NCBI RefSeq assembly: GCF_004010195.1
Contig: NC_057719.1
Coordinates: 9,649,112-9,713,111, forward strand
Length of the DNA: 64,000 nt
Direction: 5' to 3'
DNA from: Chiloscyllium plagiosum
Taxonomy: Eukaryota
Shown: positions 2,010 through 52,580 of the stretch, one piece after another
How positions within the stretch are numbered: the first letter of the stretch is position 1
Layout: every line of letters starts with the position of its first letter
Notes under the pieces: generated by a model
What the model was told of the DNA's origin: nothing
The model's database searches: none
What the model saw: the letters and a program-made list of their open reading frames with translations, nothing else
Program-made: the position numbers and the translations under genes

Positions 2010-2126
2010 GCGAAAATGACTACTGCAGATGCCAGAGATTAGAATCGAGAGTGTGGTGCTGGAAAAGCACAGAAGGTCAGGCAGCATCCGAGGAGCAGGA
2101 AAATCGATGTTTCGGGCAAAAGCCCT
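2010..2126 (-). mobile_element. Penelope-like element terminal fragment, hammerhead truncated in stem II
   Basis: Reverse strand reads agggcttttgcccgaaacatcgattttcctgctcctcggatgctgcctgacc, the same family as 22179, 23755, 28189 and 49962. Confidence 0.8.
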
Positions 2127-2889
2127 GCTAGCCCAGTAACATCACTACTACGCCTACAAGAATAGGCAGTGACACTGAGTATCCTGCCCACACGTTGGTG
2201 GACAATCCATTGGTTGAGGCCCGGTCCTTGGGGTTTCAGCAGCGAGTCTTTGTCTCCTTCTTCCTTTGCTGTGGCGGTTATAGTCAGAGGCAACGCAGTA
2301 AAGCAGCTTTCAGAGGCCACTCCCTTCTCCTCCTCACTTGACACCCAAACCCCCAAATCTCCCTGCCTCTGAATGACCCCAGATTGGAGAAATTGGACAA
2401 ACACATTCCCTCTCGCAACCCAGAAGGGAGGTTGCTCCTGGTTTCCCATTGAAGGAGCTGGCCTCCTCTCTTGTCTGCCAAGGGAGGCAGGTGATCGAGG
2501 AGGGAGTAATGAGTCCCTTGGAGATCCATTCTTTGGCAATGTGAGGGCTTTCATAGCTGACAAGCCCATAAAGTCAGCCTAGGACTTTCTTACCCAGGAC
2601 TCAATTGTAGAAGTGGTAAGTTGGGAATGAGTTTCTCTTGGAGGACAAAATACTCAGTGACTTCCTGGTCCATTACAGAGTCCAGTTCCATCCTTCCTTG
2701 TCCAGCTCTGCTGTTAGATTTTCAGTCTATACCTCTGTTTGTAAGCAGATACCATATGCTGCTTTTGAAGAGCTCTCTCAGGCAGTATTGCCATCTACAA
2801 AGACATGTATATAAACACATCAGGTCTCCCTGTTCCTGCACCCCTATAACATATTGCACCATTTAGTCCCTGCTGCTTTGAAACACAGA

Positions 2890-3218
2890 ATTCCTGCAGT
2901 GAGTACAGAAGCCACTCAGCCCATTGAGACTGCATCGACCCTCCAAAGAACATCCCATCCGGACCCTCTCAAAGCCCACATTTCCCATGCCTAATACACC
3001 GAGCCTGCACATCCCTGGACACTACGGGGCAATTTAGCACGGCCAATCCACCCTAACCAGCACATCTTGGGACTTGGTGGGGGCGAGGTGGAAACCGGAG
3101 CACCCCCTAGTAGAAGCCTATACAGAGAACGTGCAACTCCATACCGTCAGTCACCCGAGGCTGGTATCAAAGCCTGAACCCTGGTGCAGTGCGAACCACT
3201 GAGCCACAGTGCCACGCC
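2890..3218 (-). mobile_element. HE1-type V-SINE (diverged)
   Basis: Reverse complement matches the HE1 head (ggcactgtggctcagtggtt), body (ccgtgctaaattgcccc) and CR1-like tail. Confidence 0.75.
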
Positions 3219-4629
3219 TCAATCTTCCTACCAAATTCCACCACCTCACAAAGTCTTGAGTCCTGGGTTAGAAGAGAATTTTATTCGATTGCCTCCAAAG
3301 GGCTAGGATCAATTTTATTACTGCTGTCTCAGAAGGGTGGTTGCATGCTTGGACTTCAGATTACACACAGGCTGACAGCTAAACCCTCCAAGTTCAAGGC
3401 TTAAAGTAGTTCATTCTTAATATGATGCTCAATAAAAATAAAGTATTTTCCCAGTCTTCAAAAGAAATGATAGGCAGAATTGCAGCCTTATCAAGGGTTC
3501 AGTAAAGGTTACCAGAAAGATTGTTTGGCTGCAATCTATTTGATGTAATATAGAGTGAAAAATATTAGATGTTGTTCTGGGTTCAAGGCATTTATAACAG
3601 GCTAGGACAAATAAAACGTACGGAAAATGATTTTACAGTCAGAGTGATAGTGAAACTATTTGCTATTCTTGTTCTGTAAAACTTACTGAAACCACCTGCA
3701 ATCGCAGTTACATCGAAAGTCATGCCGTGGGATTCCCTTTCCCCCTCAGTTGACGATCTTCAAAAATCACTAAACTTAACAGAACCTCCCTTTCGACTCT
3801 GAAATACCATTGATAAAATTCTGCGTCTCATTAACAAGATGAATCACAGAATTGTTATAACACAGAAGATGACCATTTGGCCTATCTTGCTTCCACCAAT
3901 GCTTCAGCAGTACATCAATATCTCATGGAAATCTCCTGCCTTTTCTCCATACCCTTGCAGATAGCTTTTAATCAACTTGTTCAGATTATTATTCCTCACC
4001 TCTGGAGCAGGTAGGGCCTGAAAATGGGCCTCCTGGCTCAGAGGGGCACTACCACTGTACCACAGGAGGCCTCTCTATAAACCTGTACATTGGGTTTTCA
4101 GTAACTTCTGAAGTTATGACTACTCCTGAATAATCTCTCTGGTCCAGGAAAAGTAATGCCAATTTTTCATCACAATAAAATCCCACAAAGTAACATTTTA
4201 ATTCTTACACAGTGAAATATTTTAACATATGCTTCCAATCAAACCATCCCCTAAATGTGTTCCGTTGTGCGGGCGTGTTCATTTCAGTAAGTTGGACCCT
4301 TAAGCTTTCTTACTCATGCACACACACATATATATGTAGGCCAAGCTAAATTTCAACTGCCAAACTTCAACCACAAAAGCCTGCAGCAGGACAAGAATAG
4401 TTGTCAAAGATCCCTGCAGATTAGGAAATCATGAGGAAATTGGGATATGGGAGCAGAGTAGGCCATTTTTGTCCCTGGGACCTGCTCCTCCATTTAATAA
4501 GATCATGGTTTTTCTGTTTATGCTTTGAATTCCATGTTCCCCATTTACCCTCAGTAACCATTGATTCCGTTGCCTAACAATGGCATTGCTGACTAATGGA
4601 GGTAACTTGAAGTATCACTGAAGGTCTCC

Positions 4630-4790
4630 TCAAATTCTCCAACATTAAGGGCATTTAAATGGTCATTGGATAGACATATTGATGATAATGGAATAGTACA
4701 GGTTAGATGGGCTTCAGATTGGTTTCACAGGTCGGCACAACATTGAGGGCCAAAGGGCCTGTACTGCGCTATAATATTCTATATTCTATG
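4630..4790 (+). mobile_element. CR1 3' tail fragment
   Basis: gcatttaaatggtcattggatagacat...gggccaaagggcctgtactgcgctataatattctatattctatg. Confidence 0.7.
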
Positions 4791-5094
4791 TACCTGAAGA
4801 ATAAAGGATAAAGTTTATAAACAGCTTGGGTGGTACCTCCTGGGTTGTCGAATGGCCTTGCAAGTGTGTGGTTTACAGGGAATATTGACCCAAATTTTTA
4901 TTTCACACTGTCTACATTTTTTGTAAAGTGAAAAATAATCAGTGAAGTTTATTGATTGGGGGGAGCAGATGGTGTATTAGTAATGTCACTAGGCTAATAA
5001 TACTGCAGTGATGCTTCACAGACGTGGATTCAAATCCCACCACAGCTACTCTGGGAGTTAAAAGTCATTGATAAAGCTGTTCTCAACTTTCATC

Positions 5095-5445
5095 AGGGAG
5101 GTGAAGGCCTAGTGATATTATTGCTAGACTGTTAATCCAGAGACTCAAGTAATCTTCTTGCGAACTGGGTTTGAACCTCGGCATGGCAGGTCGTGGAATG
5201 TGAATTCTACAAAAATCCAGAATTAAGAATCTAACCATGAGTCGATTGTTGTAAAAACCCATCTGAGTCACTAATGTCCTTTATAGAAGGAAACTGCCAT
5301 CCTTACCTGGTCTGCCCTACATATGACTCCAGACCCACAGCAATGTGGTTTACTTTCAACTGCCCTCTGGGCAATTAAGGATGGGTAATAAATGCTGGCC
5401 TAGCCAGTGACACCCACATCCTGTGAGTGAATAATAAAAAAAACA
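5095..5445 (+). mobile_element. tRNA-derived SINE sharing body and tail with the LINE at 48612-52285
   Basis: tRNA-like head, body aaaaacccatctgagtcactaatgtcc...gactccagacccacagcaatgtgg, tail ggcaattaaggatgggtaataaatgctggcc...gaataataaaaaaa. Confidence 0.8.
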
Positions 5446-5866
5446 CCTCTTTGGTTTATTGTCTGTGAAATGCTGTCTGCCCTTGCCTGCTGACATCACT
5501 GCTATCAGGTCAATCAATCTGACTTGGTGCTCATGCAAACTGTACATAGAAAAGGTGAAATCCATCCTGCAGGTATGGTTTAATCTTTGTGAGCAACTTT
5601 TACCGAGGTCAGCAGCGAGTATTGCCAATTGCTTACTGACCACAATGTACAGGCCAATATACCAATAACTATTTGATTTTGCAGAGCATTTTAACACAGT
5701 GAAACATCCAAAGGCACCTCACAGCTCAACACAGTGTAACACCAATAAATTGATACTGATTTATATCATCGAGATTTACAGGCCAATAAAGAAAACTCTT
5801 TGGCCCATCACATCTACTCCAGTCAAAAGCAAGCATCTAACGATTCTAATCCCATTTTCCAGCACT

Positions 5867-5945: not shown

Positions 5946-5959
5946 CCATAGTCTTGTGT

Positions 5960-9639: not shown

Positions 9640-10592
9640 ATGTGAGCATAAGAGGTACAGTTAGTAAGTTTGCAGATGACACCAAAATTGGAGGTGTAGT
9701 GGACAGCAAAGAGGGTTACCTCAGATTACAACAGGATCTTGACCAGATGGGCCAATGGGCTGAGAGGAGTGGCAGATGGAGTTTAATTCAGATAAATGCA
9801 AGGTGCTGCATTTTGGGAAAGCAAATCTTAGCAGTACGTATACACTTAATGGTAAGGTCCTCGGGAGTGTTGCTGAACAAAGAGACCTTGGAGTGCAGGT
9901 TCATAGCTCCTTGAAAGTGGATTTGCTGGTAGACAGCATAGTGAAGAAGGCGCTTGGTATGCTTTCCTCTATTGGCCAGAGTATTGAGTACAGGAGTTGG
10001 GAGGTCATGTTGCGGCTGTACAGGACATTGGTTAGGCCACTGTTGGAATATTGCGTGCAATTCTGGTCTCCTTCCTATCAGAAAGACGTTGTGAAACTTG
10101 AAAGGGTTCAGAAAAGATTTACCAGGAAGTTGCCAGGGTTGGAGGATTTGAGCTATGGGGAGAGGCTGAACAGGCTGGGGCTGTTTTCTCTGGAGCATTG
10201 GAGGCTGAGGGGTGACCTTATAGAGGTTTACAAAATTATGGGGGGCATGGATAGGATAAATAGACAAAGTCTTTTCCCTGGGGTCGGGGAGTCCAGAACT
10301 AGAGGATATAGGTTTAGGGTGAGAGGGGAAAGATATAAAAGAGACCTAAGGGGCAACTTTTTCACGTAGAGGGTGGTATGTGTATGGAATGAACTGCCAG
10401 AGGAAGTGGTGGAGGCTGGTACAATTGCAACAGTTGAAAGGCATTTGAATGGGTACATGAATAGGAAGGTTTTGTAGGGATATGGGCCGGATGCTGGCAG
10501 GTGGGACTAGATCGGGTTGGGATCTCTGGTCGGCATGGACGGGTTGGACTGAAGGGTCTGTTTCCATGCTGTACATCTCTATGACTCTATGA
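9640..10592 (+). mobile_element. HER1/CR1 LINE, 5'-truncated (RT C-terminal half and 3' UTR)
   Basis: SKFADDTKIGG motif, then MEFNSDKCKVLHFG...LYRTLVRPLLEYCVQFWSP...RLRGDLIEVYKIM...RGNFFT; tail gtttccatgctgtacatctctatgactctatgac. Confidence 0.95.
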
Positions 10593-20004: not shown

Positions 20005-20345
20005 GTGTCATACAAAATAACACACACCAACTCCTGTTCCTCCATTGCCTTGTACACATTGACCTGCACTGACTCCTCGTTCATCAGCATTTCAATTATG
20101 GAATATTCGCTTTTGCTTTCAATTCCTAGCAAGGCCTCATGTCTCTGTGACACTGTTACCCCTCCAGCCCTATCACCACACAAGGGTGTCTCGCCAATCG
20201 CTGATATTAAACACTTTCACAACCCAGCCCCTACACTCTGGAATTCCATTCCCAAACCCCTCCTCCTCCTCTCTCCCCACACCTCACTTCCTTTAAGACA
20301 GTCGTTAAGACCCATCTCTCTGACTGAGCCTTTATCATCTGTCCT
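20005..20345 (+). mobile_element. Old L2-type LINE 3' fragment
   Basis: Degenerate LHWL-like motif (ctgcactgactc), PAPTLWNSIP and tttaagacagtcgttaagacccatctc (FK..LKT.L), typical of the L2 ORF2 end. Confidence 0.55.
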
Positions 20346-22178
20346 AAAAAATGCCCTCTGAAATAACTCCACAGAGGCTGGTATTCAGCACTCTGGGCAT
20401 TGCCCACCAACACAGCTCTGTCTACACCCAATCCTGGCCACCAGACATAACGTCTTGCCAACAGCTTCCCGTGGATAAGCCTGGTGGAGTTCAGACAGAA
20501 TCTGGTGCAGACCTTTGCTTGGTACAAATACTCTCGCTCCTCATAAATAATATGCTGTCCTCTACGGTGAGCTGGTCTCACCGTATCCACAAAGGGTTCA
20601 ATTCTTTCAGATCCCCTATCACCACCAGCTATTGTAGTTTTGCCAGGGCTGAATCTTTTTGAGTCCACATTCTTATATTGCCAGGGGTGACCGGAAGGGT
20701 GTCCAGAAAGTTTAAAACCAGAACGGAGTCTTCCAGTGACAGCACCACCAGTGGTGTATCTGTCAGCAGGAAGATAGTAGTAGAACTTTCTCACACCAAG
20801 TATTACTACCAAAGCTTCCTTCTCTACCTGGGCATACTTGCACTCTGTATTAGCCAAAGTCCAGGAAACAAATGCTTTTGGTGGTTCTCTCCATTGGGCC
20901 ATCTGTGAGCCAACATTACCCTGATACCATACAGGGAGGCATTGCATGTCAGCATCAGATCTCTCTTGGGATCATACTGTGCCAAAACCTTTGATGATGA
21001 TCGCAGCTTCTTCACTTCCCTCATGCCAATGTCTTGGCTACGTGACCATTTCCAACAATGACCCATTTTTAGGAGTTAATGCAAAGGTGCTAGGATGGAA
21101 GCCAGGTTATGTATTAACTTTTTGTTGATAAGTCATCAATCCAAGACGCAAGCTCCAGTATACATGTGGGAGCTTGGGTACCTTTGGTCACCCTCACTTT
21201 ATCTTCCAACGGGTGTAACCCGGTCTTATTGACTCTGTACCCTAAGCAGGTCACTTGTGGTGCCGGGAACACACATTTTTCCCTTCTAAAGTGTACGGTC
21301 ACCTGGGAGAAATGTTTAAGCACTATGACCAGGTTCCCTAAGTGTTCTTTTATTGCTCCTCCATGTTACTAGCATGTCATCCAGATAAGTGGCGATTTGG
21401 GGTAGACCTTGAAAATGTTCTCCATCATCTGCTGACAAATGGCACAGGTTGATGATACCCCAAAAGGCAGTCTCTTATATTGGTATAAAGTCTTATGGGT
21501 ATTAATTGTAGCATACTGCTGGGAATCCTCATCTGACTGCAATTGCCGGGGTGCAGCTCATCTCCAGCTTTGTGAAGGATCGATCCCCTGTCAGCTGCAT
21601 GTATAAGTCCTCAATGAGAGGGATTGGGTATTTATCCAGCTGCAAAAGGCAGTTTACCGTTCATTTAAAATCCCCACAAAGCGAACAGTCTCACCGGGCT
21701 TCACGATCAGGAGCAATGCTGCTCATTCTGCAAACTAGTCTGGTTTGATGATTCCTTTGCTTTCTAGCCTCCTGATTTCTACCTCTACTTTTGCCCGTAA
21801 GGCAAATGGCACTGGGTAGACATTGCAGAATCGTGGAATTGCTTCCTTGTCAACATGCAAGGTGGCCTTGGCTCCTTTGACAGTCCCGAGACCTTCCTGA
21901 AAAACTTCCAGGTATTTAATTAGGACTCCACTCAGGCAACACTTTCTCACGAAAAATGTTGTGTCAGTCAAGGTGAACCTTTCTCAACCAGTTTTGCCCT
22001 GTCAAGCCTGTCCAAGCCTTTTACTGTGATCAGTAGGAACTGAATAAGCTGCTTCTCATACAAACCAGAACTAAAGGTTGTACCCTTAAGCTGTAAAGGT
22101 TCCCCAGTGTAGGTTATCAATCCAGCTGAGGTCTTATGCAATCTTAAGGGTTTGAGTCCAGAGTGAAGTTTGTTAAAG

Positions 22179-22603
22179 CTGAAAATGTGTTGCTGGAAAA
22201 ACGCAGCAGGTCAGGCAGCATCCAAGGAGCAGGAGAATCAACGTTTCGGGCATGAGCCCTTCTTCAGGAATGAGGAAAGTGTGCCAAGCAGGCTAAGATA
22301 AAACGTAGGGAGGAGGGACTTGGTGGAGGGCGTTGGAAATGCGATAGGTGGAAGGAGGTTAAGGTGAGGGTGATACGGTGAGGGTGATATGCTGGAGTGG
22401 GGGTGGGGGCGGAGAGGTCAGGAAGAAGATTGCAGGTTAGGAAGGTGGTGCTGAGTTCGAGGGTTGGGACTGAGGCAAGGTGGGGGGTGGGGAAATGAGG
22501 AAACTGGAGAAATCTGAGTTCATCACTTGTGGTTGGAGGGTTCCTAGGCAGAAGATGAGGCACTCTTCCTCCAGCCGTCGTGTTGCTATGGTCTGGCGAT
22601 AGA
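22179..22603 (-). mobile_element. Penelope-like element 3' fragment (GIY-YIG C-terminus, UTR, hammerhead) inserted in Gypsy pol
   Basis: Minus frame RQTIATRRLEEECLIFCLGTLQPQVMNSDFSSF; core ctgaagaagggctcatgcccgaaacgtt; TSD tgaagtttgt(t/g)aaag at 22164-22178 and 22604-22618. Confidence 0.88.
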
Positions 22604-23754
22604 TGAAGTTTGTGAAAGACTGGTTCTGTGATCACTGATACAGCCATACTAGTATCAATCTCCATTAGATCATTTAACCGTGCTTTTATTTTGACTGGTT
22701 CTGATTTAGATGCTGCTAAACAATTTAACTGCTTCAAGGCACATGTAGGTGGGTCTTCCAGGGTGTGCACTCTCCTGGATACTGGCCTATAAGTTCTCTT
22801 ACTCAATCAGGCCCTAGTCGAGACTCTTTTGCTGTCTCGAGTCCGCACACCGAGAGCAACTACAATGACTTGCCAGCCAGGATCGTGAAGAAAATATGAA
22901 TCATTTGGCCAAAGCTTGGCTTTGTTTTGGGGATTTGCTGTGGGCTGACCTAGAGTCCCTTCTCCTGAGTGAGGCTATGCAATTGCCTTCTCTAAAGTGG
23001 TGTCCCCCAAGCTCTTTTGGCCTGGTGAGGGAGTCCACTTCCATCGTAATACCCTGTAACTTATATTCTCCACTTGCCGTATTTTCCATTGACAAAGCCA
23101 ATTGAAGTGCCTGTTTGAAGTCCATGTTAAGCTTCAAATGGTCGGCACATTTGCATGGTTACATCATTAATCTCACGTACCAAATGGTCTCTCAGCATCT
23201 CTTGAAGGGTTGAAACAAAGTCACAAGCCTCTGCCAATAATCTTAACCCTCTTGCCAAAACTTCCAGAATGGATTCCACACGTTCTCGAATTGCTGAGAA
23301 AAATCAATAGCATCTCAGAATTCAAGGAGGTTTGGGATTGTAATATTCCTTAACTAAATCTGTCAACTCTTGAAACGTTTTGCCTTGGGGAAAGTTAGGC
23401 TCCTAATAACAGAAAAAGCTGTGGGTCCACAAGCCACCAGGAGAATTACTCATTGCTTTTCATCTGCCCCAAAGTCATTTGCTCGGGAAAAAATAATGCT
23501 TTCTTTTTACATAGTGGACCCTGTCTTCAATGGCAGAATCAAACGAGTTAAGCTTCACAAATAATGCCAGAGATGCTCTCCCTAACTCAAAGACGACTGT
23601 TGCAACCAAATTTCTTCAGGAGTGTATTTTTTTTTCTCTTAGCACCACTGAAATAACTCCACAGAGGCCGGTATTCCATCATCAATTCACCCGTTATTTA
23701 CATGTGCATATTACTTGACGCTGGTCTGGATTCCTCAGAGCCAGCTCTCAGAGT

Positions 23755-23886
23755 CCTCCTGAAGAAGGGCTTTTGCCCGAAACGTTGAGTTTCCTGCTCC
23801 TTGGATGCTGCCTGACCTGTTGTGCTTTTCCAGCACCACTCTAATCTAAACTCTGGTTTCCACCATCTGCAGTCCTCACTTTTGCT
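23755..23886 (+). mobile_element. 132-bp PLE-derived insertion in the Gypsy LTR
   Basis: Perfect 13-bp TSD cagctctcagagt at 23742-23754 and 23887-23899. Confidence 0.9.
23756..23789 (+). ncRNA. Minimal type I hammerhead ribozyme motif
   Basis: CTC-CTGAAGA-A-GGGC tttt GCCC-GAAA-CG-TT-GAG; stem I CTC/GAG, 4-bp stem II, palindromic ACGT stem III. Confidence 0.75.
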
Positions 23887-28188: not shown

Positions 28189-28395
28189 CGAGAGAAAGTG
28201 AGGGCTGCAGATGCTGGAGGTCAGAGCTGAAAATGTGTTGCTGGAAAAGCGCAGCAGGTCAGGCAGCATCCAAGGAACAGGAGAATCGATGTTTCGGGCA
28301 TAAGCCTGAAGAAGGGTTTATGCCCGAAACGTCGATTCTCCTGCTCCTTGGATGCTGCCTGACCTGCTGCGCTTTTCCAGCAACGCATTTTCAGC
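28189..28395. mobile_element. Palindromic PLE-derived insertion with a hammerhead core at its centre (28306-28333, +)
   Basis: Inverted arms at about 28225-28304 and 28312-28396; 12-bp TSD ttggagggatat at 28177-28188 and 28396-28407. Confidence 0.9.
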
Positions 28396-29567
28396 TTGGA
28401 GGGATATTGGCCAGGTGTAGACAGGTGGGACGAGATTAGTTGGTGATTATGGCCTGCATGGACTGGTTGGACGGAAGCATCAGTTTGCGTGCTGAATGCC
28501 TCTCCAATTTCATTGCTGTGGATGTTGGAAATCAGAAACAAGAACTGAAATTACTGGAACGAGAAAGGGTCACTAGACTTGACACGCAAACTCTGCTTTC
28601 TCTCCACAGTTGCTGCCAGACCTGCTGAGTTTCTCCTTTGCTGGCAAGCGCACAGCAAAGGAGACCATTTGTCTTTTGTGCTAGCTCTCTAAAATCCACT
28701 TCGTCCCATTTCCTCACTCTTTTGAGTTCTGTTGAGGCTTCTCATCTTGTACTCATCAGGGCAATTTGCAAGAAAGATCGAAGCAAGTCAATGTATAGAA
28801 TGTAATAAACAGACCCAAAAACTGCTGGAGAAACTCAGCATGTCTGGCAGCATCTGCAGAGTGAGAAACAGAGTCAATGTTTTGAGTGTGGTGACCCATC
28901 TTCAGAACTGGACTCGACTGGTCTCAAAAATTACCTCTGATCCTTTCTCCACAGATGCTTCCTGATCTGCTTTTGTTTGTTTCAGATCATCAGTATCAGC
29001 AATTCTTTATTTTATAATGTTATTAGTAGCCAATTCACTGATGAAATTTGACTGAATGTGTTTTCAGGTGGAGCATTCCAGTTTATAACAACTCGATGTA
29101 AGGAATAAAGAAAAGCTTCACTTCACCATTCCTAATGCTTTGCCAACATATTCAACCTCTATGCTTTGCGTATCCTTCATTAACTCAGCTGTTTCTCCCA
29201 TTTATTCTGCCAAATGCACCCGAGTATAAAATTCAGTGTCTGAGCAGGTTAACATCTGTGGTTAACAGAAGTTGCTGGAAAAGCTCAGCATGTCTGGCAG
29301 CATCAGTGAAGAGAGATCAGAGTTAATATTTTGGGTCCAGTGTCCCTTCCTCAGAACTTTAATAACTGTGGAATTCACTGCTCCAAAACGTGAGGGATGC
29401 TGAGACACTGAATAAATTTGAGGGGGAGATAGATAGATTTTCAAAATAATAACAGGTTAAAAGGTAATGGAGAGCGGGCAGGAAAGTGGAGCTGGGTCCA
29501 GGATGAGATCAGCCATGATCACATCAAATGATGGAGCAGGCTTGTGGGATTGAATTGTTCATATGTG

Positions 29568-30218
29568 GGCGGCACGGTGGCACAGTGGTTAGCACTGCTG
29601 CCTCACAGCGCCTGAGACCCGGGTTCAATTCCCGCCTCAGGCGACTGACTGTGTGGAGTTTGCACATTCTCCCCGTGTCTGCGTGGGTTTCCTCCGGGTG
29701 CTCCGGTTTCCTCCCACAGTCCAAAAGATGTGCAGGGTCAGGTGAATTGGCCATGCTAAATTGCCCGTAGTGTTAGGTAAGGGGTAAATGTAGGGGTATG
29801 GGTGGGTTTCGCTTCGGCGGGTCGGTGTGGACTTGTTGGGCCGAAGGGCCTGTTTCCACACTGTAATGTAATCTAATCTAATCTAATATGTCCTAACATT
29901 TTAGGTACGGTGGCACAGTGGTTAGCACTGCTGCCTCACAGCACTAGAGACCCGGGTTCAATTCCCACCTCAGGCGACTGACTGTGGAGTTGGCACGTTC
30001 TCCCCGTGTCTGCATGGATTTCCTCCGGGTGCTCCGGTTTCCTCCCACAGTCCAAAGATGTGCAGGTCAGGTGAATTGGCCACGCTAAATTGCCCATAGT
30101 GTTAGGTAAGGGGTAAATGTAGGGGTATGGGTGGGTTGCGCTTCGGCGGGGCGGTGTGGACTTGTTGGGCCGAAGGGCCTGTTTCCACACTGTAGTCTAA
30201 TCTGTAGTCTAATCTAAA
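29568..30218 (+). mobile_element. Two young HE1 SINEs head-to-tail (29568-29886, 29906-30218)
   Basis: ggcggcacggtggcacagtggttagcactgctgcctcacagc...gggttcaattccc...gggccgaagggcctgtttccacactgta(atcta)n; CpGs intact. Confidence 0.95.
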
Positions 30219-30649: not shown

Positions 30650-31910
30650 CCGTAGTAGGCTGCTTGACTTGACTCTGTTAAAATAAAAGCCAACATTCCC
30701 ATTTACCTCCTTTATTACCTGATGAACATGGATGCTAGCTTTTTGTGGTTCATATAAGATAGCTCTTTTATCTGCAGTCTTTCTCCATTTAATAATTTTC
30801 AGCTCTTCTATTCTTCCTGCCAAAGTGCATAACCTAACATTTCCCCATATTGTATTCATTCTCCTAAGTTTTTACCCACTTACCTCTGTCCATACCCCTC
30901 TTTGTGTCATCCTCATTCTCTGTCTTCTCATCTATCTTTTGTCTCATCTGCTAACTTGGCTATAATACATTCACCTTTCTATTCAAATCATTAGCATACA
31001 TTTTACTTTTTTAAAAAATCACTCATGACAGCTGACTGGCATTTATTGTCTGTCCCTAGTTGCCCTTGAACTATGTGGCTTGTATGCCAATTCAGAGGGC
31101 AGTTGAGAGACAACCACATTTCTATATGCAAGCCAGACCAGGTGAAGATGGCAGATTTCCTTCACTGAAGGACATTAGTGAACCAGATGGGTTTTTTCGA
31201 CAATTGTCAACCAGTAGCTTCTTAATTCCAGACTTATTCTTTAATTTGAATTCCACCAACTGCCACTATGGGATTCAAACTTGGTTCCACAAATCGTTAG
31301 CTGAGTTCCTGGGTTAATAACCCCGCGTGCTAATACCACCAGGAGAAAGTGAGGACTACAGATGCTGGAGATCAGAGTCAAAAAGTGTGGCACTGGAAAA
31401 ACACAGCAGGTCAGGCAGCATCCGAGGAGCAGGAGAGTTGACTGTTCGGACACAAGCCCTTCATCAGCCTCTCCTGCTCCTCTGATGCTGCCGGATCTGA
31501 TGTGCTTTTCCAGCAGGCCATCACCTCCCCCAAATAATTATGGTCTTAGCACCAATCCCTGTGGTAATCCAGTAGCTTGGAAATGCCTACCTTATTCAAA
31601 CTGTCTGCTTTCTATTGGTTAGCAATCGTCTGGCCATGCTCATATACCAACTCCAACACCAAGGCAATTACATTTTTAAGTAACCTAAAGTTTGGTACCT
31701 TACCAAACACTTTCTGAAAATCCAAATATATTACTTCCCCTTTATCTAACCTACTTGTTACTTCCTCAAAAAATTCTAGTAAATTTTTCAGGCATTATAT
31801 CCCCTTTGTGAAGTCACACCCGAACTGCTTGATCGTATAATGCATTTCAAAATGCTCTGCTATTAAAGCCTTTTTAACAGATTCTAAAATTTTCTCAGTA
31901 ACAGATGTTA
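30650..31910 (-). mobile_element. Old CR1 RT-region fragments interrupted by a SINE (31015-31340) and a PLE palindrome (31341-31515)
   Basis: ttcttcctgccaaagtgcataacc (reverse of V(M)HFGRKN); ccaatccctgtggtaatcc (reverse of G(L)PQGLVL); aaacactttctgaaaatccaaatat (reverse of YLDFQK(V)F). Confidence 0.65.
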
Positions 31911-33721: not shown

Positions 33722-33820
33722 AATTCCTGATGAAGGGCTCCGGCCCGAAACGTCGATTTTCCTGCTCCTCAGATGCTGCCTAATCTGCTATGCTTTTCCA
33801 GCAACACACATTCAACTCTG
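33722..33820 (+). mobile_element. PLE terminal fragment with intact hammerhead core (33727-33754)
   Basis: aattc-CTGATGA-A-GGGC tccg GCCC-GAAA-CG-TC-gattt. Confidence 0.8.
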
Positions 33821-36032: not shown

Positions 36033-36320
36033 ATGAGTTGTTGTTCTGTTCGCCGAGCTGGGAATTTGTGTTGCAGACGTTTCGTCCCCTGTCTAGGTGA
36101 CATCCTCAGTGCTTGGGAGCCTCCTGTGAAGCGCTTCTGTGATCTTTCCTCCGCCATTTGTAGTGGTTTGAATCTGCCGCTTCCGGTTGTCAGTTCCAGC
36201 TGTCCGCTGCAGTGGCCGGTATATTGGGCCCAGGTCGATGTGCTTATTGATTGAATCTGTGGATGAGTGCCATGCCTCTAGGAATTCCCTGGCTGTTCTC
36301 TGTTTGGCTTGTCCTATAAA
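36033..36320 (-). mobile_element. Penelope-like element 3' end (second family): GIY-YIG C-terminus plus hammerhead
   Basis: IGQAKQRTAREFLEAWHSSTDSINKHIDLGPIYRPLQ, typical of the Penelope endonuclease C-terminus. Confidence 0.88.
36073..36112 (-). ncRNA. Minimal type I hammerhead ribozyme motif
   Basis: GCA-CTGAGGA-T-GTC a CCT agac AGG g GAC-GAAA-CG-TC-TGC. Confidence 0.8.
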
Positions 36321-36795: not shown

Positions 36796-37196
36796 AATAG
36801 GTAGGGCATAAAATATATCTCAGATTTTACTGAAGGTGATCTTGGAAAAATAAATAAAATCTGTTCTTTATTAAAATAGAGAAACAGGAGTAAAGGACCA
36901 ATGAGCTTGAGGCAATATGAACACCAAAAAGGGCAGAGAAAGCAAGGACAGCAGATGCTGGAGATCAGAGTCAAACCGTGTTACATTCCTGATGAAGAGC
37001 TTATGCTTGAATCCTGCTCCCCCGACGCTGCCTGATCGGCTGTGCTTTTCCAGCACCACACACCAAAAACAGCAGGCCAGGGGATGAGAGAGAACAGGGA
37101 AAATGTGTGAAAAAGTGCAATGGCATGTAGCTCTCAGGTGATTCCAAGCAGATATGGATGGTACTGGTGTGGTGGTAATGTCTCCAGACTAGCATC

Positions 37197-37932
37197 GAGT
37201 CATAGAGATGTACAGCATGGAAACAGACCCTTCGGTCCACCTGTCCATGCCAACCAGGTATCCCAACCCAATCTAGTCCCACCTGCCAGCACGCGGCTCA
37301 TATCCTTCCAAACCCTTCCTATTCATATACCCATCCAAATGCCTCTTAAATGTTGCAATTGTACCAGCCTCCACCACTTCCTCTGGCAGTTCATTCCATA
37401 CATGTACCACCCTCTGCGTGAAAAAGTTGCCCGTTAAGTCTCTTTTATATATTTCCCCTTTCACCCTTACCCTATGCCCTCTAGTTCTGGACTCCCCGAC
37501 CTCCAGGGAAGAGACTTTGCCTATTTATCCTATCCATGCCTCTCAACATTTTTTAAACCTCTATAAGGTCACCCCTCAGCCTCCAACACTCCAGGGAAAA
37601 CAGCCCCAGCCTGTTCAGCTTCTCCCTGCAGCTCAAATCCTCCAACCCTGGCAACATCCTTGTAAATCTTTTCTGAACCCTTTCAAGTTTCACAACATCT
37701 TTCCGATAGGAAGGAGACTTGAACTGCACGCAATATTCCAACAGTGGCCTAACCAATGTCCTGTACAGCCGCAACTCCCAACTCCTGTATTCAATATTCT
37801 GACCAATAAAGGAAAGCATACCAAATGCCTTCCTCACTATCCTATCTACCTGCGACTCCACTTTCAAGGAGCTATGAACCTGCAGTCCCAGGTTTCTTTG
37901 TTCAGCAACACTCCCTAGGACCTTACCATTAA
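37197..37932 (-). mobile_element. HER1/CR1 LINE, 5'-truncated
   Basis: ORF 37553-37978 (-) LNGKVLGSVAEQRNLG...LYRTLVRPLLEYCVQF...RLRGDLIEV is close to the copy at 9776-10369; tail at 37197. Confidence 0.95.
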
Positions 37933-38304
37933 GCAATTCACAACTCCAGGTTGAATGCTCCAGGGGACAAGAGCTCAATTATCATCATGGCAGATAATAA
38001 CATTTTCAATCAAAATTCAATCCGGAATGAAAACGCTGATAATGTAACCACTGCCAATTGTTGCAAAAGGTTCTGATGAAAGGTCACTGGATTCAAAATG
38101 TTAACGCTGCTTTCTCTCCTCTGATGTTTCCAGACCGGCCAAGTTTTTCCAGAAATGTGTCCATTTTGTTTTTGTTTCAGATTTCCAGCATCTGCAGTTC
38201 TTTATTTTATTTTTAGGTAAAAGAAATCTATCTCATTCACTCACGTGTTTTTGTGAAGGAAGTTTACCATCCTTATCTGATCTGAGACAAAAAAAAACTG
38301 CAAA

Positions 38305-38700
38305 ACATCCTTTGCCTCCTCCATTGCCACAACGAACCACACCACAAATTGGAGGAACAACACCTTATCTTCCGCCTGGGCATCCTGCAGCATGGAGGAC
38401 TCAAGGCTGAGTTCTCCAATTTCAAATAACCTCCTTTCCCATACTCTGACTCCCCTCCCAGCCCCTCCCTCTCCCCTTCACTCCTCCCTGCCACCAACCA
38501 TATTCATTCCTCCCATTGACTAACCACATCGTACCCTCTACCTGTCTTCACCCATCACCACTTCACCACCCTTCCCCTGCCACCCCTTTATCTGCAGCTC
38601 CCCCTACACCCATCCCCAGTCCTGAAGACGGGTTACACCCGAAACATTGACTTCTCCACCTCCTGATGCTGCCTGGTTCTTCCAGCGTCCTGCCTGCCTG
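38305..38700 (+). mobile_element. Penelope-like element 3' fragment (GIY-YIG C-terminus, UTR, hammerhead 38618-38652) inside a 5095-family SINE
   Basis: LLHCHNEPHHKLEEQHLIFRLGILQHGGLKAEFSNFK*; AGTC-CTGAAGA-C-GGGT tac ACCC-GAAA-CA-TT-GACT; atccttatc repeated on both flanks. Confidence 0.85.
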
Positions 38701-39917: not shown

Positions 39918-40378
39918 AGTGGCACGTGGCTCAGTGGTTAGCACTGCTGCCTCACAGTGCCAGGGGCCTAGGTTTACATACTCTTCCCGTGTCTGTGTGG
40001 GTTTCCTCCCCACAATCCAAAGATGCAGGTTAGATGAATTGGCCCTGTTAAATTGCCCATAGTGTTCAGGAATGTGGAGGATAGGTAAATATAGGATACA
40101 GGAAGGGATCTGGGTGGGTTACTCTTCGGAGGGTCAGTGTGAACTTGTTGGGCAAAAGGGCCTGTTTCCATACTGTAGAGGCAGTGCTAACCACTGTGCC
40201 ACTGTGCTGCCCAAAGATGCAGGTTAGATGAATTGGCCCTGTTAAATTGCCCATAGTGTTCAGGAATGTGGAGGACAGGTAAATATAGGATACAGGAAGG
40301 GATCTGGGTGGGTTACTCTTCGGAGGGTCAGTGTGAACTTGTTGGGCAAAAGGGCCTGTTTCCATACTGTAGAGATTC
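39918..40378 (+). mobile_element. HE1 SINE with duplicated 3' half
   Basis: 40017-40180 is repeated at 40211-40374 with a 30-bp inverted head fragment between them. Confidence 0.9.
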
Positions 40379-43369: not shown

Positions 43370-43389
43370 CTAACAGAGATAAACAGGAG

Positions 43390-43548
43390 ATCAGGCAGCA
43401 TCCGAGGAGCAGGAAAATCAACGTTGAAGGGATTTTGTCCGAAGTATCAATTTTCCTGCTCCTTAGCTGCTGCCTGACCTGCTGTGCACTTCCAGCACTA
43501 CTCTAATCTTGACTCTAATCTCCAGCATCTGCAGTACCCACTTTCACC
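43390..43548. mobile_element. PLE-derived inverted-repeat insertion
   Basis: tcaggcagcatccgaggagcaggaaaatcaacg / caattttcctgctccttagctgctgcctga; flanked by gagat(at)aaacagga. Confidence 0.75.
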
Positions 43549-44144: not shown

Positions 44145-44342
44145 AAAACAAATAATTGCGGATGCTGGAAATCAGAAAAAATACAGAAATTCCTGGAGGA
44201 ACTCAGCAGGTCTGGCAGTGACTTCGGACAGATAGCAGTGTTAACGGTTTGGGTCCCTTCATCTGAAGAAACGTTAAGTCTGCTTTCTCTCCACAGATGC
44301 TGCAGGACCGACTGAGTTTTTCCAGCAAATTCTGTTTTTTTT
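44145..44342. mobile_element. PLE-derived inverted repeat (gttaac family), hammerhead core collapsed
   Basis: cagaaattcctggaggaactcagcaggtctggcag...gttaacgg / aacgttaag...ctgagtttttccagcaaattctg. Confidence 0.7.
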
Positions 44343-44504: not shown

Positions 44505-45245
44505 TACAGTCATACAGCACAGAAACAGACCCTTTGGTCCAACCAGTCCATGCCAACCATAATTCCAAGCTAAACTAGCCCCTCCTGCCTGAACTTGACC
44601 CATATCCCTCCAAACCCTTCCTATTCATGTACTTAACTGAATGCCTTTTCAATGTTAAAAATCACACAACACCAGGTTATAGTCCAACAGGTTTATTTGG
44701 ATGGAGTAGCTTTGGAAGCTGTGTAAAAACATTGCCCTTCATTTCTGTTTTAAATCTTCTTCCTCTCACTTTAAACCTATGCCCCTTACTCTTGAAATCT
44801 CTCACCCTAGGTAAAAGACACCTGCCATTCACCTTATCTATATCTCTCATGATTTTATAAACCTCTTTAAGATCACCCCTCAACTTCTTACAGTCCAGAT
44901 AAAAAAAGTGCCAGCCTATCCAGCATCTCCTTATAACTCAAGCCCTTCATTCCCAGCAATGTCCTGGTAAATCTCTTCTGAATCCTCTCCAGCTTAATGA
45001 TATCCTTCCTATAACAAAGTTAAAAATCATACAATAGCAGGTTATAGTCCAATGGGTTTATTTGGAAGCACTTGCTTTCAGAGCACTGCTCCTTCATCAG
45101 GTGGTTGTGAAGGAGCAGCGCTCTGAAAGCTAGTGCTTCCAAATAAACCTGTTGGACCATAACCTGATGTTGTGTGATATTCAACTTTGTACACCCTAGT
45201 CTATCACCGGCACCTCCAAATCATGACTTCCTATAACAGGGATGC
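44505..45245 (-). mobile_element. HER1/CR1 3' fragment with two insertions of a third PLE family (44654-44720, 45017-45225)
   Basis: RGDLKEVYKIMRDIDKVNG...SKGHRFKVRGRRFK (-); insertions share ttaaaaatca(c/t)acaa..caggttatagtccaa. Confidence 0.85.
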
Positions 45246-45564: not shown

Positions 45565-45950
45565 AGAGGTTTAACAGCATGAAAACAGGCCCTTCAGTCC
45601 AACATTATTAGTCCAGTCCCCTTTGACTGTGTTTGGTCCATATCCCTCCACACCTATCTCATCTATGTACCTCTCTAAATGTTTCTTCAATGGCAAAACT
45701 GTACTCGCCTTCATTGCTACCTGTGACAGCGTGTTCCAGACATTCACCATCCTCTGTGTGAAAACACTGACTCTCTGGACCTTTTTATATTTCTCCCCTC
45801 TCACCTTAAACTTACGGCCTCTAGTTTTAGACTCCCCTATCATGGGGAAAAGCTGTTGGCTACCTACATTATCTATGCCTCTCGTGATTTTGTAGGCCTC
45901 CGTAAGGTTACCCCTCAGTCTCCTACGCTCCAGGGAAAGAAGTCTCAGCT
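45565..45950 (-). mobile_element. CR1 3' fragment
   Basis: SLERRRLRGNLTEAYKI...SKTRGRKFKVRGE...FTQRMVNVWNTL. Confidence 0.9.
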
Positions 45951-46315
45951 TAAATATGCAATGTATGTTCAATAGTATGGCTTCCAGTCTTTGTCTGTCA
46001 AAAGCATCTTATACCCTGTCACTATATTTACCTAAATCATGAATTTGAAAGATTTACATAAATGTGAAGGTAAAGGGTGTGTTCGGTTAATTGCATGCCC
46101 CACTATTTTGTAAAGGATTATTTATGAAACTTATCGGTCACTGACATCTGCTGTGGTGTTTTACTGTGGTATGTGGATTTAAGGCAACAGCATTTAATTG
46201 TTCCATTTGAACAGGGCATGATATTTTAGCAGTACTTTAACATATGACCAACTCTGGTTTGAAAATTGCTTTTGGGAGAAAGAATTAACATAAATGATTC
46301 TGTAATATGTTAGTA

Positions 46316-48159: not shown

Positions 48160-48395
48160 AAAACAAAGGACTGCAGAGGCTAGAATCATGAAACTAAACC
48201 AGAAATTGCTGGAGAAACTCAGCAGGTCTGGCAGCATCTGTGGAGAAAGAAACAGAGTCAGCATTTCAGGTCCAGCGACCCTTCCTCAGGAACCGTCTGA
48301 AGAGGGGCACTGGACGGGAAACCTTAACACTGTTTTTCTCTCTCCACAGATGATGCCAGACCGGCAGAATTTCTCCAGCAATTTCTGCTTTTGTA
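48160..48395. mobile_element. PLE-derived inverted repeat with decayed hammerhead cores on both strands
   Basis: ttcaggtccagcgacccttcctcaggaac / tctgaagaggggcactggacgggaaaccttaac. Confidence 0.75.
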
Positions 48396-49961
48396 TTAGG
48401 TTGGTGCACATGTGACTCTTCCAGTATATGACCTAAAATATTTGTTCACTAGTGAAGTCTGACTGCGGTCCCAATTAAAATTAGAGTGAAGAATTGCAAT
48501 TAGATACACCAGACTATGCAAACTTTGTGCAAATGAAAGAGATAAAAGAAAGCTGATGAATGAGGAGAGAATAAAATACATTTTTCACAAATACTTTTTT
48601 TCACATGTATATTTTTGTTCAATTGCGGGACTTGGCTGCCCAGTATTGATAGCCCATCCCTATTTGCCCTTGAGGGCCCTTGAGGGTGGTGAGTTGCCTT
48701 CATGAATCGCTGCAGTCCACTTGCTGTGGGTTGACCCACAATGCCACTGGGGAGGGAATTCCAGGATTTTGACCCAACGACTGTGAAGGAATGGCGGTAT
48801 ATTTCCAAGTCAGAGTGGTGAGTGGCTTGGAGGTGAACTTGCAGGTGGTGGTGTTCCCAAGAATCTGTTGCCCTTGTCCTTCTAGATGGACAGGCGCTGT
48901 CTAAGAATCTTTGATGAATTTCTGCAGTGCATCTTGTAGATAGTACACACTGCGGCTAATGAGTGCCAGTGGTGGAGATATTGAATGTTTGTAGATGTGG
49001 TGCCAATCAAGCAGGTTGCTTTGTCCTGGATGGTGTCAATCTTCTTGAGTGTTGTCAGAGCTGCACCCATCCAGGCAAGTGGAGAGTATTCCATCACACT
49101 CCTGACTTGTGCCTTGTAGATGGTGGATGGACTTTGGGGTGTCAGGAGGTGAGTTACTCGCCACAGTATCCCTAGTCTCTGACCTGCTCTTGTAGCCACT
49201 GTGTTTATGTGGTGAGTCTAATTGAGTTTCTGGTCAATGGTAACCCCAAGGATGTTGACACTGAGGGATTCACTGATGGTAATACCGTTGAATGTCAAAG
49301 GGTGGTGGTTAGAGTGTTTCTTGTTGGTGATGGTCATTGTCTGGCATTCATGTGGCATGAATGTTACTTGCCACTTGTCGGTCGAAGCCTGGATTTTGCC
49401 CAGATCTTGTTGCATTTGAGCACAGACTGCTGCAGTATCTGAGGAGTTCTGAGTGGCGGTGAACACTGTTCAATCATCGGTGAACATCCTGACTTTTGAC
49501 CTTATGACAGAGGGAAGGTCATTGATGAAGCAGCTGAAGATTGTTGGGCCTAAGACACTACCCTGAAGGACTCCTGCAGAGATGTCCTGAAGCTGAGATG
49601 ACTGACCCTCCACATCCACAACCACCTTCCTTTGTGCCAGGTGTGACTCTAACCAGTGGAGTGTTTGCCTCCTGATCCCCATTGATTCCAGTTTTGCCAG
49701 GGCTCCTTGATGCTACACTCGGTCAAATGCACCCTTGATGTCAAGGGCTGTCACTCTCACCTCACCTCTGGAATTCAGCTCTTTCATCCATGTTTGAACC
49801 AAGGCTGTAATGAGATCAGGATCTGGGTGACCTTGGCGAAGCCCAACCTGGGCGTCACTGAGCAGATAGTCGCTGAGCAGGTGCTGCTGGATAGCACTGT
49901 TAATGACCTCTTCCATCAATTCACTGATGATGGAGAGTACACTGATTGGCTTGTAATTGGT

Positions 49962-50177
49962 TGGAAATGTGTTGCTGGAAAAGCGCAGCAGGTCAGGCAG
50001 CATCTAGGGAACAGGAGAATCGACGTTTCGGGCATTAGCCCTTCTTCAGGAACCTGAAGAAGGGCTAATGCCCGAAACGTCGATTCTCCTGTTCCCTAGA
50101 TGCTGCCTGACCTGCTGCGCTTTTCCAGCAACACATTTCCATCTCTGATCTCCAGCATCTGCAGACCTCACTTTCTC
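49962..50177. mobile_element. Young palindromic PLE-derived insertion in the LINE RT
   Basis: Perfect 89-bp inverted arms (49962-50050 / 50053-50141); 15-bp duplication cttgtaattggttgg at 49950-49964 and 50178-50192. Confidence 0.95.
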
Positions 50178-51729
50178 CTTGTAATTGGTTGGGTTGGATT
50201 TGTCTTGCTGTTTGTGTACAGGACATACCTGGGCAATTGTCCACATTGTTGGGTAGATGCCAGTGCTGTAACTGTACTGGAAGAGCTTGGCTAGGGGAGC
50301 AGCATGTTCTGGAGCACGCCTTCAGTACTACTGCCGGAATGATATCAGGGCCCATTACCTTTGCAGTAACCAGTGCATTCAGTCGTTTCTTGATATCACG
50401 TGGAGCGAATCAAATTGGCTGGAGACTGGTATCTGTGATGCTGGGGACCACCGGAGGAGCCCAAGATGGAACAGCCACTCGGCACTTCAGAATGAAGATA
50501 TTTTTGAATGTATCAGCTTTATCTTTTGCACTGATGTGCTGAGCTCCTCCATCATTGATGATGGGGATATCCGTGGAGTCTCCTCCTCCAGTGAATTGTT
50601 TAATTGTCCACCACCATTCATGACTGGATGTGGAATGACTGCAGAGCTTCAATGTGATCCGTTGGTTGTGGGATCGCTTAGCTCTGTTAATCACTTGCTG
50701 TTTAAGCCATTTGGCATGCAAGTGGTCCTGTTTGGTACCTTCACCAGGTTAACACCTCATTTTTAGGTGCTCCTGGCATGCCCTCCTGCACTCTCCATTG
50801 AACCAGGGTTGATCCCCTGGCTTGATGGTAATGGTTGAGTGGGGATATGCCAGTCCATGAGGTTACAGATTGTTCTGGAGTACAATTCTGCTGTTGTTGA
50901 TGGCCCACAGCACCTCATGGATGCCCAGTCTTGAGCTGCTAGATCAGTTTGAAGTCTGTCCCATTTCGCACAGTGATATTGCCACACAGCACAATGGAGG
51001 TTATTCTCAATGTGAAGGTGGGACTTTGTCTCCACAAGGACTGTGCAGTGGTCACTTTTACCTATATTGTCATGGACAGATGCTTCTGCAGCCAGCAGAT
51101 TGGTAAGGATGAGGTCGAGTATGTTTTTACCTTTTACTGGTTCCCTCACCATCTGCCCCAGACCCAGTCTGGCAGTTATATCCTTTAGGACCCAACCAGC
51201 TCGAACAGTAATGCTGCTGCCAAGCCACCCTTGATGGTGGACAGTGAAATCCCCCACCCAGAGTACGTTTTGCACCCTTGCCAGCCTCAGTGTTTCCTCT
51301 AAGTGTTGTTCAACATTGAGGAGCACTGATTCATCGGCCGAAGGAGGATGGTACGTGGTAATCAGTAAGAGGTTTCCTTGCCCATGTTTAACCTGAAGCC
51401 ATAAAACTTCACTGGGTCCAGACTCGATGTCAAGGCCTGCCAGGGCAACTCCCTCCAACTGTATCCCACTGTGCCACCACCTCTGCTGGGTCTATTCTGC
51501 CGGTGGGACAGGACATATCCAGGGATGGTAATGGTGGTGTCTGGGGTGTTATCTGTAAGGTATGATTCTGTAAGAATGACTATGCTGGGCTGTTGCTTGA
51601 CTAGTCTGTGAGACAACACTCCCAATTTTGGGACTAGCCCCCAGGTGTTAGTAGGGAGGACTCTGCATAGTCAAAAGGGCTGTTTGTGTTTTTGCCATGG
51701 TCATTTTCGGTTCCGAGGTCAATGCTAGG

Positions 51730-52160
51730 TGGTCCATCCAGTCTCATTTCTTTGTTGTGACTTCCGAACGATTGATACAATTGAGTAGCTTGCTAGGCCA
51801 TTCAGAGGGCAGCTGAGAGTCAACCACATTGCTATGGCTCTGGAGTCACATGGAGGCCAGATCAGGTAAGGATGGCAGATTTCCCTCCCGAAAGAACATC
51901 AGTGAATTAGATGGGTTTTTCCGACAATTGACAATGGTTTCATGGTCCATCCAGTCTCATTTCTTTGTTGTGACTTCCGAGCGATTGATACAATTGAGTG
52001 GCTTGCTAGGCCATTCAGAGGGCAGCTGAGAGTCAACCACATTGCTATGGCTCTGGAGTCATATGGAGGCCAGATCAGGTAAGGATGGCAGATTTCCCTC
52101 CCGAAAGAACATCAGTGAATTAGATGGGTTTTTCCGACAATTGACAATGGTTTCATGGTC
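51730..52160 (+). repeat. 213-bp tandem duplication in the LINE 5' region
   Basis: Units 51730-51942 and 51943-52155; identical ORF starts at 51829 and 52042; TGGTC microhomology. Confidence 0.95.
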
Positions 52161-52364
52161 ATCAGTCGATCCTAAATTCCAGATTTTTAAAAATTTAATT
52201 CAAATTCCACCATGTGCCGTGACAGGATTTAAATCCCCATAATATTATACTGGCTTTCTGGATTAATTGTCGAGCAAATAAGATGCGACGAGGAACAACC
52301 CTGTAATTGTTTTGATATTCTGTTGGTCTTATATATTTTCTAATCAACCTGTGTAGGAATATTT

Positions 52365-52580
52365 ACTGAAGACAACAAATGCTGGAGATCACAGCAGGTC
52401 AGGCAGCATCCATGGAGAGACAGCGAGCTAATGTTTCAAGTCTAGATGACTCTTCATCACAGCACGTTGAAGCTCCAATGAACAGTCATCTACACTCGAA
52501 ATGTTAGCTGGCTGTCTTTCCACAGATGCTGCCTGAACCGTTGTGACCTCCAGCATTTATTGTTTTCAGTACAGATTGCA
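52365..52580. mobile_element. PLE-derived inverted repeat (GAGTC-stem family)
   Basis: Minus strand gtgatgaagagtcatctagacttgaaacattagc; plus strand atgaacagtcatctacactcgaaatgttagc. Confidence 0.75.

Follow-up and report, generated by a model that had tools for sequence, protein, structure and literature searches.

What is the hammerhead ribozyme of Penelope-like elements (PLEs) for, and how do the inverted ends of these retroelements arise? Both questions are presented as open in the literature (PMC8557442, PMC11167929), and both are raised by a stretch of 64,000 nucleotides (nt) from the shark Chiloscyllium plagiosum (assembly GCF_004010195.1, contig NC_057719.1, positions 9,649,112 to 9,713,111 of the forward strand), hereafter the window, in which hammerhead cores recur. 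These cores belong to minimal hammerhead ribozymes (min-HHRs) in the pseudo-long terminal repeats (pLTRs) of at least six PLE families (family D by its shared tail only), and most of the copies are short stubs, probably left where the reverse transcriptase (RT), after priming 90-125 nt further downstream, ran off the end of uncut RNA that is predicted to start with stem I. A more specific reading, for and against which we see the balance as even, is that in Neptune-type shark PLEs the hammerhead would be the very start of the capped messenger RNA (mRNA), with the transcription initiator doubling as stem I, and that the hundreds of thousands of stubs would be run-off copies of this uncut end, primed at two fixed sites from both nicked target strands. 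The motif class is already known and its members are new in this genome; the value of the material lies in stub statistics that bear on the start site and on the role of the ribozyme.

Positions in the motif are counted here from C3, the first C of CUGANGA, which is 0, and the predicted cut of family A falls between +27 and +28. Families are lettered as A (GGGC/GCCC), B (the type at 36109), C (the type at 45100), D (GGGTC/GACCY), E (the type at 38622) and F (the type at 52460); family H, with U3-A8, lies outside the window, and L-numbers such as L031 or L016 denote other loci of the same genome. With a strict descriptor (CTGANGA, stem II of at least 3 bp, GAAA, palindromic 15.2/16.2, TH and stem I of at least 2 bp), the window contains 11 cores, of which 8 have the TH triplet and 5 are complete, against means of 0.87, 0.16 and 0.01 (maxima of 4, 2 and 1) in 200 dinucleotide shuffles. 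Chance matches to a short degenerate motif would be conceivable for single loose cores, about one of which occurs per 64 kb of shuffled sequence, but they are refuted as a general explanation, and practically impossible, given the excess of complete motifs together with their family structure and their linkage to open reading frames (ORFs). The hammerheads of the window are therefore genuine minimal type I motifs, far above chance.

An earlier note on this DNA had listed recurring hammerhead cores, and its motifs and coordinates are correct and in excess of the shuffles, but six of its eleven named sites have decayed. Complete are those with C3 at 22267 (minus strand), 23759 (plus), 33727 (plus), 36109 (minus) and 50049 (minus). 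At 38622 (plus) the palindromic CG has become CA, at 45100 and 48289 (both minus) the triplet is broken, and the core itself is broken at 52460 (minus, C3 to G), 29354 (minus, G12 to A) and 38073 (plus, GAAA to CAAA). The start coordinate of that list, 2010, falls on a tail without CUGA, and a further core with triplet at 28306 (plus) was absent from it. In the Rfam search of the window no hammerhead family appears at E up to 1; its 12 rows are microRNA models, rejected as sub-threshold matches sitting on palindromes. None of the tandem arrays of the window carries a hammerhead motif, no adjacent same-strand pair of cores was found in the window scan, and on folding of monomers stem II is the only stem that folds stably.

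The same note had spoken of a dense population. A genome sample of 120 arbitrary 10-kb stretches at round coordinates of large contigs (1,150,826 non-N nt) holds 53 complete motifs, 104 triplet motifs and 388 arms. This amounts to 2.9 complete and 5.8 triplet motifs per 64 kb, against 5 and 8 in the window (Poisson P = 0.18 and 0.23), and the density of intact motifs is thus ordinary for the genome. Only when decayed arms are counted is the window richer, with 35 against 20.7 expected (bootstrap P = 0.011), an excess inflated by the fact that 3 of the 12 query arms were taken from the window. Extrapolation to 3.56 Gb would give some 160,000 complete motifs and 1.2 million arms.

Among the 112 triplet motifs of window and sample, an extra nucleotide after A9 (between 9 and 10.1) is present in 108. 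G occupies 10.1 in 106, and the first pair of stem II is G-C in 78, G-T in 28 and A-T in 6. Positions 15.2/16.2 are palindromic in 75 motifs (CG 60, GC 13, TA 2), and CA (16) and TG (14) at this place are what CpG decay of dead copies would produce; the genomic copies are mostly dead and decaying. Stem I differs by family: ATTC/GATT with a U.U mismatch in A (58 copies), AGTC/GACT in E (9), AGCT/AGCT in F (7) and in H, CAC/GTG in C (33) and GCA/TGC in B (36). Helices I and II covary between families, as judged from counts only, with kinship ignored, A, D, E, F and H sharing a tail. The covariation of stem I claimed before is upheld for GCA/TGC, AGTC/GACT and CAC/GTG, but CTC/GAG is not a family state, as 42 of the 58 family A copies have T.T at that position and the CTC/GAG at 23759 is a single-copy coincidence, and GTT/AAC (family D) could be classified in two copies only. 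Family H, in which U3-A8 replaces C3-G8, was seen at L148 (C3 at position 4825, plus strand) and in two arms at L220, with TATAAA upstream and a remnant of a GIY-YIG C-terminus. Another Poseidon-like family with a helix II of 6-7 bp (L061, L047 and L168; 17 arms of the sample) is absent from the window.

The carriers of these motifs are PLEs, which bears out the earlier suggestion of ribozyme-bearing PLE termini. The family A copy at 22177-22606 matches thousands of places in the genome with a sharp 3' end, and sister copies show, further upstream, a cysteine linker and also a GIY-YIG domain (in L016, Pfam E 0.033, below the curated cut-off). Family A could be traced to a full-length element of the RT plus GIY-YIG type, the 3.87-kb copy at L031:556-4425. 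This copy is a partial tandem composed of a truncated pLTR, an ORF, an RT stretch (RVT_1 in Pfam at E 2.2e-5, short of the curated cut-off), an assembly gap and a second pLTR. Its ORF starts at 1147, about 160 nt after the core, and is broken by stops and frameshifts; the two pLTRs (556-1073 and 4193-4425) are 94% alike, and both contain the motif, on the same strand and separated by 3.35 kb, with a change of G12 in the second. The closest match to the family A RT is a protein of Stegostoma tigrinum, 74% identical. A protein of 158 amino acids filed under Proteus mirabilis (P0050), which sits on a 474-nt contig, is 90% identical to this RT over half of the query and probably represents host sequence within a bacterial assembly.

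Upstream of the hammerhead, families A, B, C, E, F and H have GIY-YIG remnants, those of B, C, E and F recognized by reading motifs. They are found some 350 nt upstream in sister copies of family B, in which an ATG stands at the start of stem II, inside the core; family E has its ORF C-terminus remnant within the window at 38286-38423, and remnants of both RT and GIY-YIG stand upstream of a sister copy of family F (L230). The 43 D, F and H arms examined showed no ORF remnant upstream of family D, whose link to PLEs is the shared tail only. Families A, E and F have a cysteine-rich linker, read in family A as CNRKKCKTC in L008 and L016, which fits the CX2-5CxxC form, and a CX2-5CxxC linker before GIY-YIG is a Neptune/Nematis feature (PMC8557442). 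Family A would thus be of the Neptune/Nematis type, clade names being used here on the strength of motifs alone.

What sets these copies apart is their form, since most of them are solo or head-to-head stubs of 100-220 nt. Window and sample together give 423 arms, 236 of them in 118 head-to-head pairs within 4 kb. The distance from C3 to C3 is at most 30 nt in 51 of 66 family A pairs, with none at 31-88, at most 37 nt in 23 of 29 C pairs and at most 8 nt in 8 of 12 D pairs; both F pairs are close, and B shows no clustering (1 of 6). Judged by eye, the tails of the 51 close A pairs (two of which, at distance 30 and at L071, look mis-paired and were kept in the count) are long/short in 47, short/short in 3 and long/long in 1, the long ones ending at about +121/124 and the short ones at about +85-92; 28 of the 51 have a target duplication of 10-17 nt near the alignment ends, also by eye. 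Junctions vary from copy to copy, often with filler, and either arm may reach -4. Copy-specific junctions together with target duplications indicate that each stub is one insertion, made anew, and solo stubs with target duplications are also present. A role of self-complementary stems in setting the junction was considered and dropped, as junction sums are not constant. Long arms often hit assembly gaps (L036, L038, L053, L078, L090), which suggests that long PLE palindromes are probably under-assembled.

In the window itself, ten head-to-head pairs make up 20 of the 35 arms, and close pairs stand on opposite strands. Such an orientation makes a tandem dimer in one RNA impossible, and a long hairpin is expected instead; for the palindrome at 49962-50141 the predicted fold is a single hairpin of -185.9 kcal/mol.

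The starts of the copies were mapped with subfamily-matched references, which replaced a reference-free analysis that overextended them by several letters. In families A, C and D the 5' ends accumulate directly ahead of the core, in general 3-5 nt from it. In family A, 81 of 207 arms start between -12 and 0, including 28 at -4 or -3; 9 start between -44 and -13, 42 reach -45 or beyond, 5 are cut by gaps and the others begin inside or after the motif, with only 2 of the 207 at the cut site (+28). In family C, 26 of 80 arms start between -13 and 0 and 13 reach -45. A genome-wide count of exact matches to one 29-nt core (A1; at least 32,971 copies), covering the classes that break at -4, -5, -6 and -8, places the first non-element letter at -4 in 7,594, at -5 in 7,516, at -6 in 3,495 and at -8 in 697 copies, with 13,669 still matching at -8. 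Losses are thus at most 23% at -4, 30% at -5 and 20% at -6, and 4.9% at -8. Among 30 loci per class, the upstream box of A1 is kept in 0 at -5, 9 at -6 and 10 at -8, which implies that the counts at -6 and -8 include point mutants of long copies.

Long copies show what lies ahead of this edge. A TATA-like box is present 33-38 nt before C3, with TATAAA in C (10 of 12 long copies), D (L047) and H, CATAAA or the like in F, and TTTATC in A and E; about 30 nt after it comes an initiator-like TCATTC, TCAGTY, CCAGTC or TCAGCT with its A at -4, and the pairing of stem I ends exactly at this A in families A, E and F. An additional hint comes from the letter at -5, which in the first 100 loci listed is G in 60, A in 26 and T in 14 (26 G expected by composition, binomial P 2e-12), with G, counted by eye, in 17 of the first 100 listed at -4, 22 at -6 and 34 at -8. 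Capped full-length L1 insertions are recognizable by an extra G (PMC11702581), and the G at -5 may be suggestive of a cap in the same sense. The excess is present only in the genome-wide list, the small random sample being flat (G 5, A 4). A start at -7 with G at -8 was also considered and dropped (697 against 7,516 matches).

These data are probably accounted for by the following pathway. A promoter in the pLTR would start the RNA at A(-4) in families A, D, E and F, and at about -8 in C, and the first four letters of the RNA would form stem I. The PLE protein would bind downstream and the RT would start at two fixed internal sites, to which the two constant ends of the tails would correspond. 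Within the 5' pLTR only about 90-130 nt separate these sites from the RNA start, so that the cDNA (complementary DNA) would run off. Priming of both nicked target strands would yield two short cDNAs joined head to head, priming of one strand a solo stub, and priming at the 3' pLTR of read-through RNA the long copies. As stubs run through the cut site and end 30 nt further on, their template would have been uncut; in general it would be mostly uncut and probably capped. Cleavage, if any, would need a second motif on the same strand or the help of a protein, and would be of consequence only for RNA of long tandem copies, which would thereby lose about 32 capped letters at its start. There are precedents for single steps: the PAc element of Anolis starts RT at two internal sites, extends both strands and uses uncut RNA (PMC11167929), and the start site lies inside the pLTR in the Penelope of D. 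virilis and in Chlamys-3 (PMC2377424, PMC8557442).

On the other hand, several observations weigh against a run-off at a start placed at stem I. In D. virilis, 46 nt and an intron of 75 nt separate the RNA start from helix I downstream (PMC2377424, PMC4209133), which means that the layout is not universal, and the Anolis assay showed no strand difference in start site (PMC11167929), from which a strict long/short pairing would not be predicted. None of 16 family B arms ends between +44 and -30 (in the reference-free analysis), without any pile-up, and the start mapping of family D ran without a long reference copy. The TTTATC of families A and E is not a canonical TATA. Losses at -4 nearly equal those at -5 in the A1 genome counts. 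The excess of G is specific to -5 in part only: the G:A ratio is 60:26 there, with 22:21 for -6 (Fisher P 0.052) and 34:17 for -8 (P 0.71), 4 of 20 inspected G's at -5 are the end of an inverted arm, and in solo copies G stands at -5 in 8 of 16 (P 0.037). Finally, among 3,407 single-cell poly(A) reads that come from a related organism and match L031:700-1400, no place stands out as the start or end of many molecules, and a further read set (X22) yielded no match; 93% of the 3,407 continue into unlike sequence in both directions, and the mixed loose ends of 144 reads before position 981, which corresponds to -4, fit transcribed genomic stubs or other subfamilies and are not evidence of a start.

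The spread of losses over -3 to -5 would also be expected if the RNA started elsewhere and the RT stalled, or switched template, just past a folded or protein-bound hammerhead on long read-through RNA. The pile-up does coincide with the 5' edge of the motif in families A, C and D, and the Anolis hammerhead requires the PLE protein (PMC11167929). However, the equally good motif of family B has no pile-up, no peak marks the passage of stem II, the one stem that is stable, and neither the box 30 nt upstream nor the excess of G at -5 would be explained, which makes stalling an unlikely account. Rather unlikely too is the proposal, derived from the work of Arkhipova and colleagues on inverted pLTRs, that one cDNA folds back and primes itself, an endonuclease then trimming one arm to leave a one-sided tail. 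The strict long/short pairing (47 of 51) fits such a single ordered event, and both self-priming (PMC3846280) and endonuclease-mediated resolution (PMC8557442) have been argued for, but junctions often carry filler, either arm can reach -4, self-priming would need an antisense template (PMC3846280), and solo stubs that carry target duplications share the same stopping point. In any case, fold-back concerns the second arm only and is compatible with an RNA start at -4.

It is very unlikely that the stubs are a self-propagating non-autonomous element, akin to retrozymes or to miniature inverted-repeat transposable elements (MITEs), or the remains of long palindromes that were deleted or mis-assembled. 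Their very high copy number, the assembly gaps at long arms and the length of arms in three families, all about 100 nt or less, would agree with one or the other, but copy-specific junctions largely refute both. Moreover, no motif of the window stands in a tandem array, by which non-LTR retrozymes are defined (bioRxiv 2026.07.22.740005), and as to erosion, the stopping position is shared by solo stubs, and deletion would not be expected to attain the precision of a single letter at -4/-5. Run-off from uncut RNA starting with stem I remains the reading that we prefer.

If the more specific reading for Neptune-type elements is true, the ribozyme would be a self-decapping switch that acts outside or after reverse transcription and would not serve to prepare the template, and the stubs would mark the place where PLE RNA starts and account for inverted ends genome-wide. 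Confirmation would mean that cleavage decaps the element's own mRNA instead of freeing a template. The copies of the A1 core, at least 32,971, allow statistics at the level of single bases; according to these, insertions stop before the motif and not at the cut site, and a single RNA start is indicated. Head-to-head stubs would, in addition, supply host transcripts with hairpin RNA on a very large scale.

The copies of the window to which these considerations apply are the following.

22177..22606, minus strand: 5'-truncated end of a family A PLE, with ORF C-terminus, 3' untranslated region, complete motif and short tail.
23757..23882, plus strand: family A solo stub starting 2 nt before C3 (23759), with complete motif and long tail.
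28194..28396: family A head-to-head stub with long and short tail and target duplication; its core at 28306 (plus) has the triplet and has lost stem I.
33723..33820, plus strand: family A solo stub starting exactly at A(-4), with complete motif (C3 33727).
36037..36300, minus strand: family B (Poseidon-like) PLE end, its upstream limit set only to 36300.
38286..38652, plus strand: family E PLE end, with the ORF C-terminus remnant (38286-38423) and the motif (38618-38652).
45014..45212: head-to-head stub of family C, the triplet broken in its minus arm (C3 45100) and present in its plus arm, which starts at +4.
48193..48394: head-to-head stub of family D, with decay in both motifs (C3 48289, minus; about 48297, plus).
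49962..50175: family A perfect palindrome of 89 bp with two cores, long and short tail and target duplication.
52358..52577: family F head-to-head stub, both cores decayed (C3 at 52460, minus, and 52475, plus).
29264..29356, minus strand: family D solo stub, G12 changed to A.
38071..38189, plus strand: family D solo stub, GAAA changed to CAAA and stem II broken.
2012..2129, minus strand: family A stub starting at +4, without CUGA.
31345..31515, both strands: family A head-to-head stub, unnamed in the earlier note.
28807-28971, 36938-37061, 43383-43534 and 44184-44339: other unnamed head-to-head stubs.

In the copy at 22177..22606 the motif spans 22236-22271, with C3 at 22267 and the predicted cut between 22240 and 22239, and the ORF remnant lies at 22464-22610 (tblastn E 2.7e-23). 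The family B end has its complete motif at 36073-36112, with C3 at 36109 and the ATG within the core, and the family E motif at 38618-38652, with CG decayed to CA, has a 4-bp stem I, AGTC/GACT. The palindrome at 49962..50175 combines the complete core at 50049 (minus) with one at 50054 (plus) whose stem I is 1 bp. In family C (44654-44713 and 45014-45212 in the window, and other loci) AATAAA or ATTAAA, which we take to be the two forms of the poly(A) signal, follows the predicted cut by 8-10 nt. Elsewhere in the window, a 23-nt minisatellite at 60040-60945 (about 39 copies) has long open frames on the plus strand; local tandem duplications lie at 29574-30217, 40017-40374 and 51730-52167 (periods of 329, 194 and 213 nt), the first presumably akin to a transfer RNA-derived short interspersed nuclear element (SINE); and open stretches at 9764-10369, 37553-37978, 45571-46008, 50763-51491 and 20231-20971 look, by eye, like fragments of CR1/L2-type long interspersed nuclear elements (LINEs), as well as one fragment of an LTR element.

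With respect to known systems, min-HHRs in the pLTRs of metazoan PLEs, with several families per genome, were described by Cervera and De la Peña in 2014, who reported low cleavage activity for dimers (PMC4209133). The motifs of this shark agree with theirs in being of type I without a helix III loop, with an extra nucleotide after A9, G at 10.1, palindromic 15.2/16.2, a short helix I and a U3-A8 variant, as well as in the presence of several families per genome, mostly solo, with some close pairs on opposite strands. They differ in helix II, of 4-5 bp in most families here, and in number, the extrapolated 160,000 or so standing against 4,000 and 9,000 in coelacanth and Xenopus as counted with a different descriptor; the accessible parts of that report name no shark and do not relate the motif to the RNA start. 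Further sources are PMC6765202 (which cites Lünse 2017) and PMC6155905. In the literature covered, neither hammerheads of sharks nor insertions ending at the motif were found to be treated; such families may be listed in Repbase, Dfam, subscription papers or supplements, which lie outside this coverage.

Insertions of endonuclease-containing (EN+) PLEs, as described by Arkhipova in 2013 (PMC3846280) and Craig in 2021 (PMC8557442), share with the present copies the head-to-head inverted pLTR, a one-end tail (about 34 nt here, 30-40 nt known), a duplication of 10-17 nt, frequent 5' truncation and a promoter and start site inside the pLTR. Unlike in those reports, the dominant product here has no ORF and turns at a fixed place before the hammerhead. 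The Poseidon element PAc of Anolis (Frangieh 2024, PMC11167929) has two RT start sites matching the tail ends found here and, like family B, an ATG at the start of stem II; it differs from families A, E and F, which have the cysteine-rich linker, and from A in particular, whose ORF starts about 160 nt after the core (L031), and its start site shows no strand bias, as opposed to the long/short pairing of the shark stubs. Animal non-LTR retrozymes, in a study that sampled one cartilaginous fish, likewise contain type I hammerheads from PLE pLTRs (bioRxiv 10.64898/2026.07.22.740005). No two or more head-to-tail hammerhead units, by which retrozymes are recognized, occur in the window; whereas retrozymes form head-to-tail arrays, the hammerheads of this shark stand in solo or inverted insertions.

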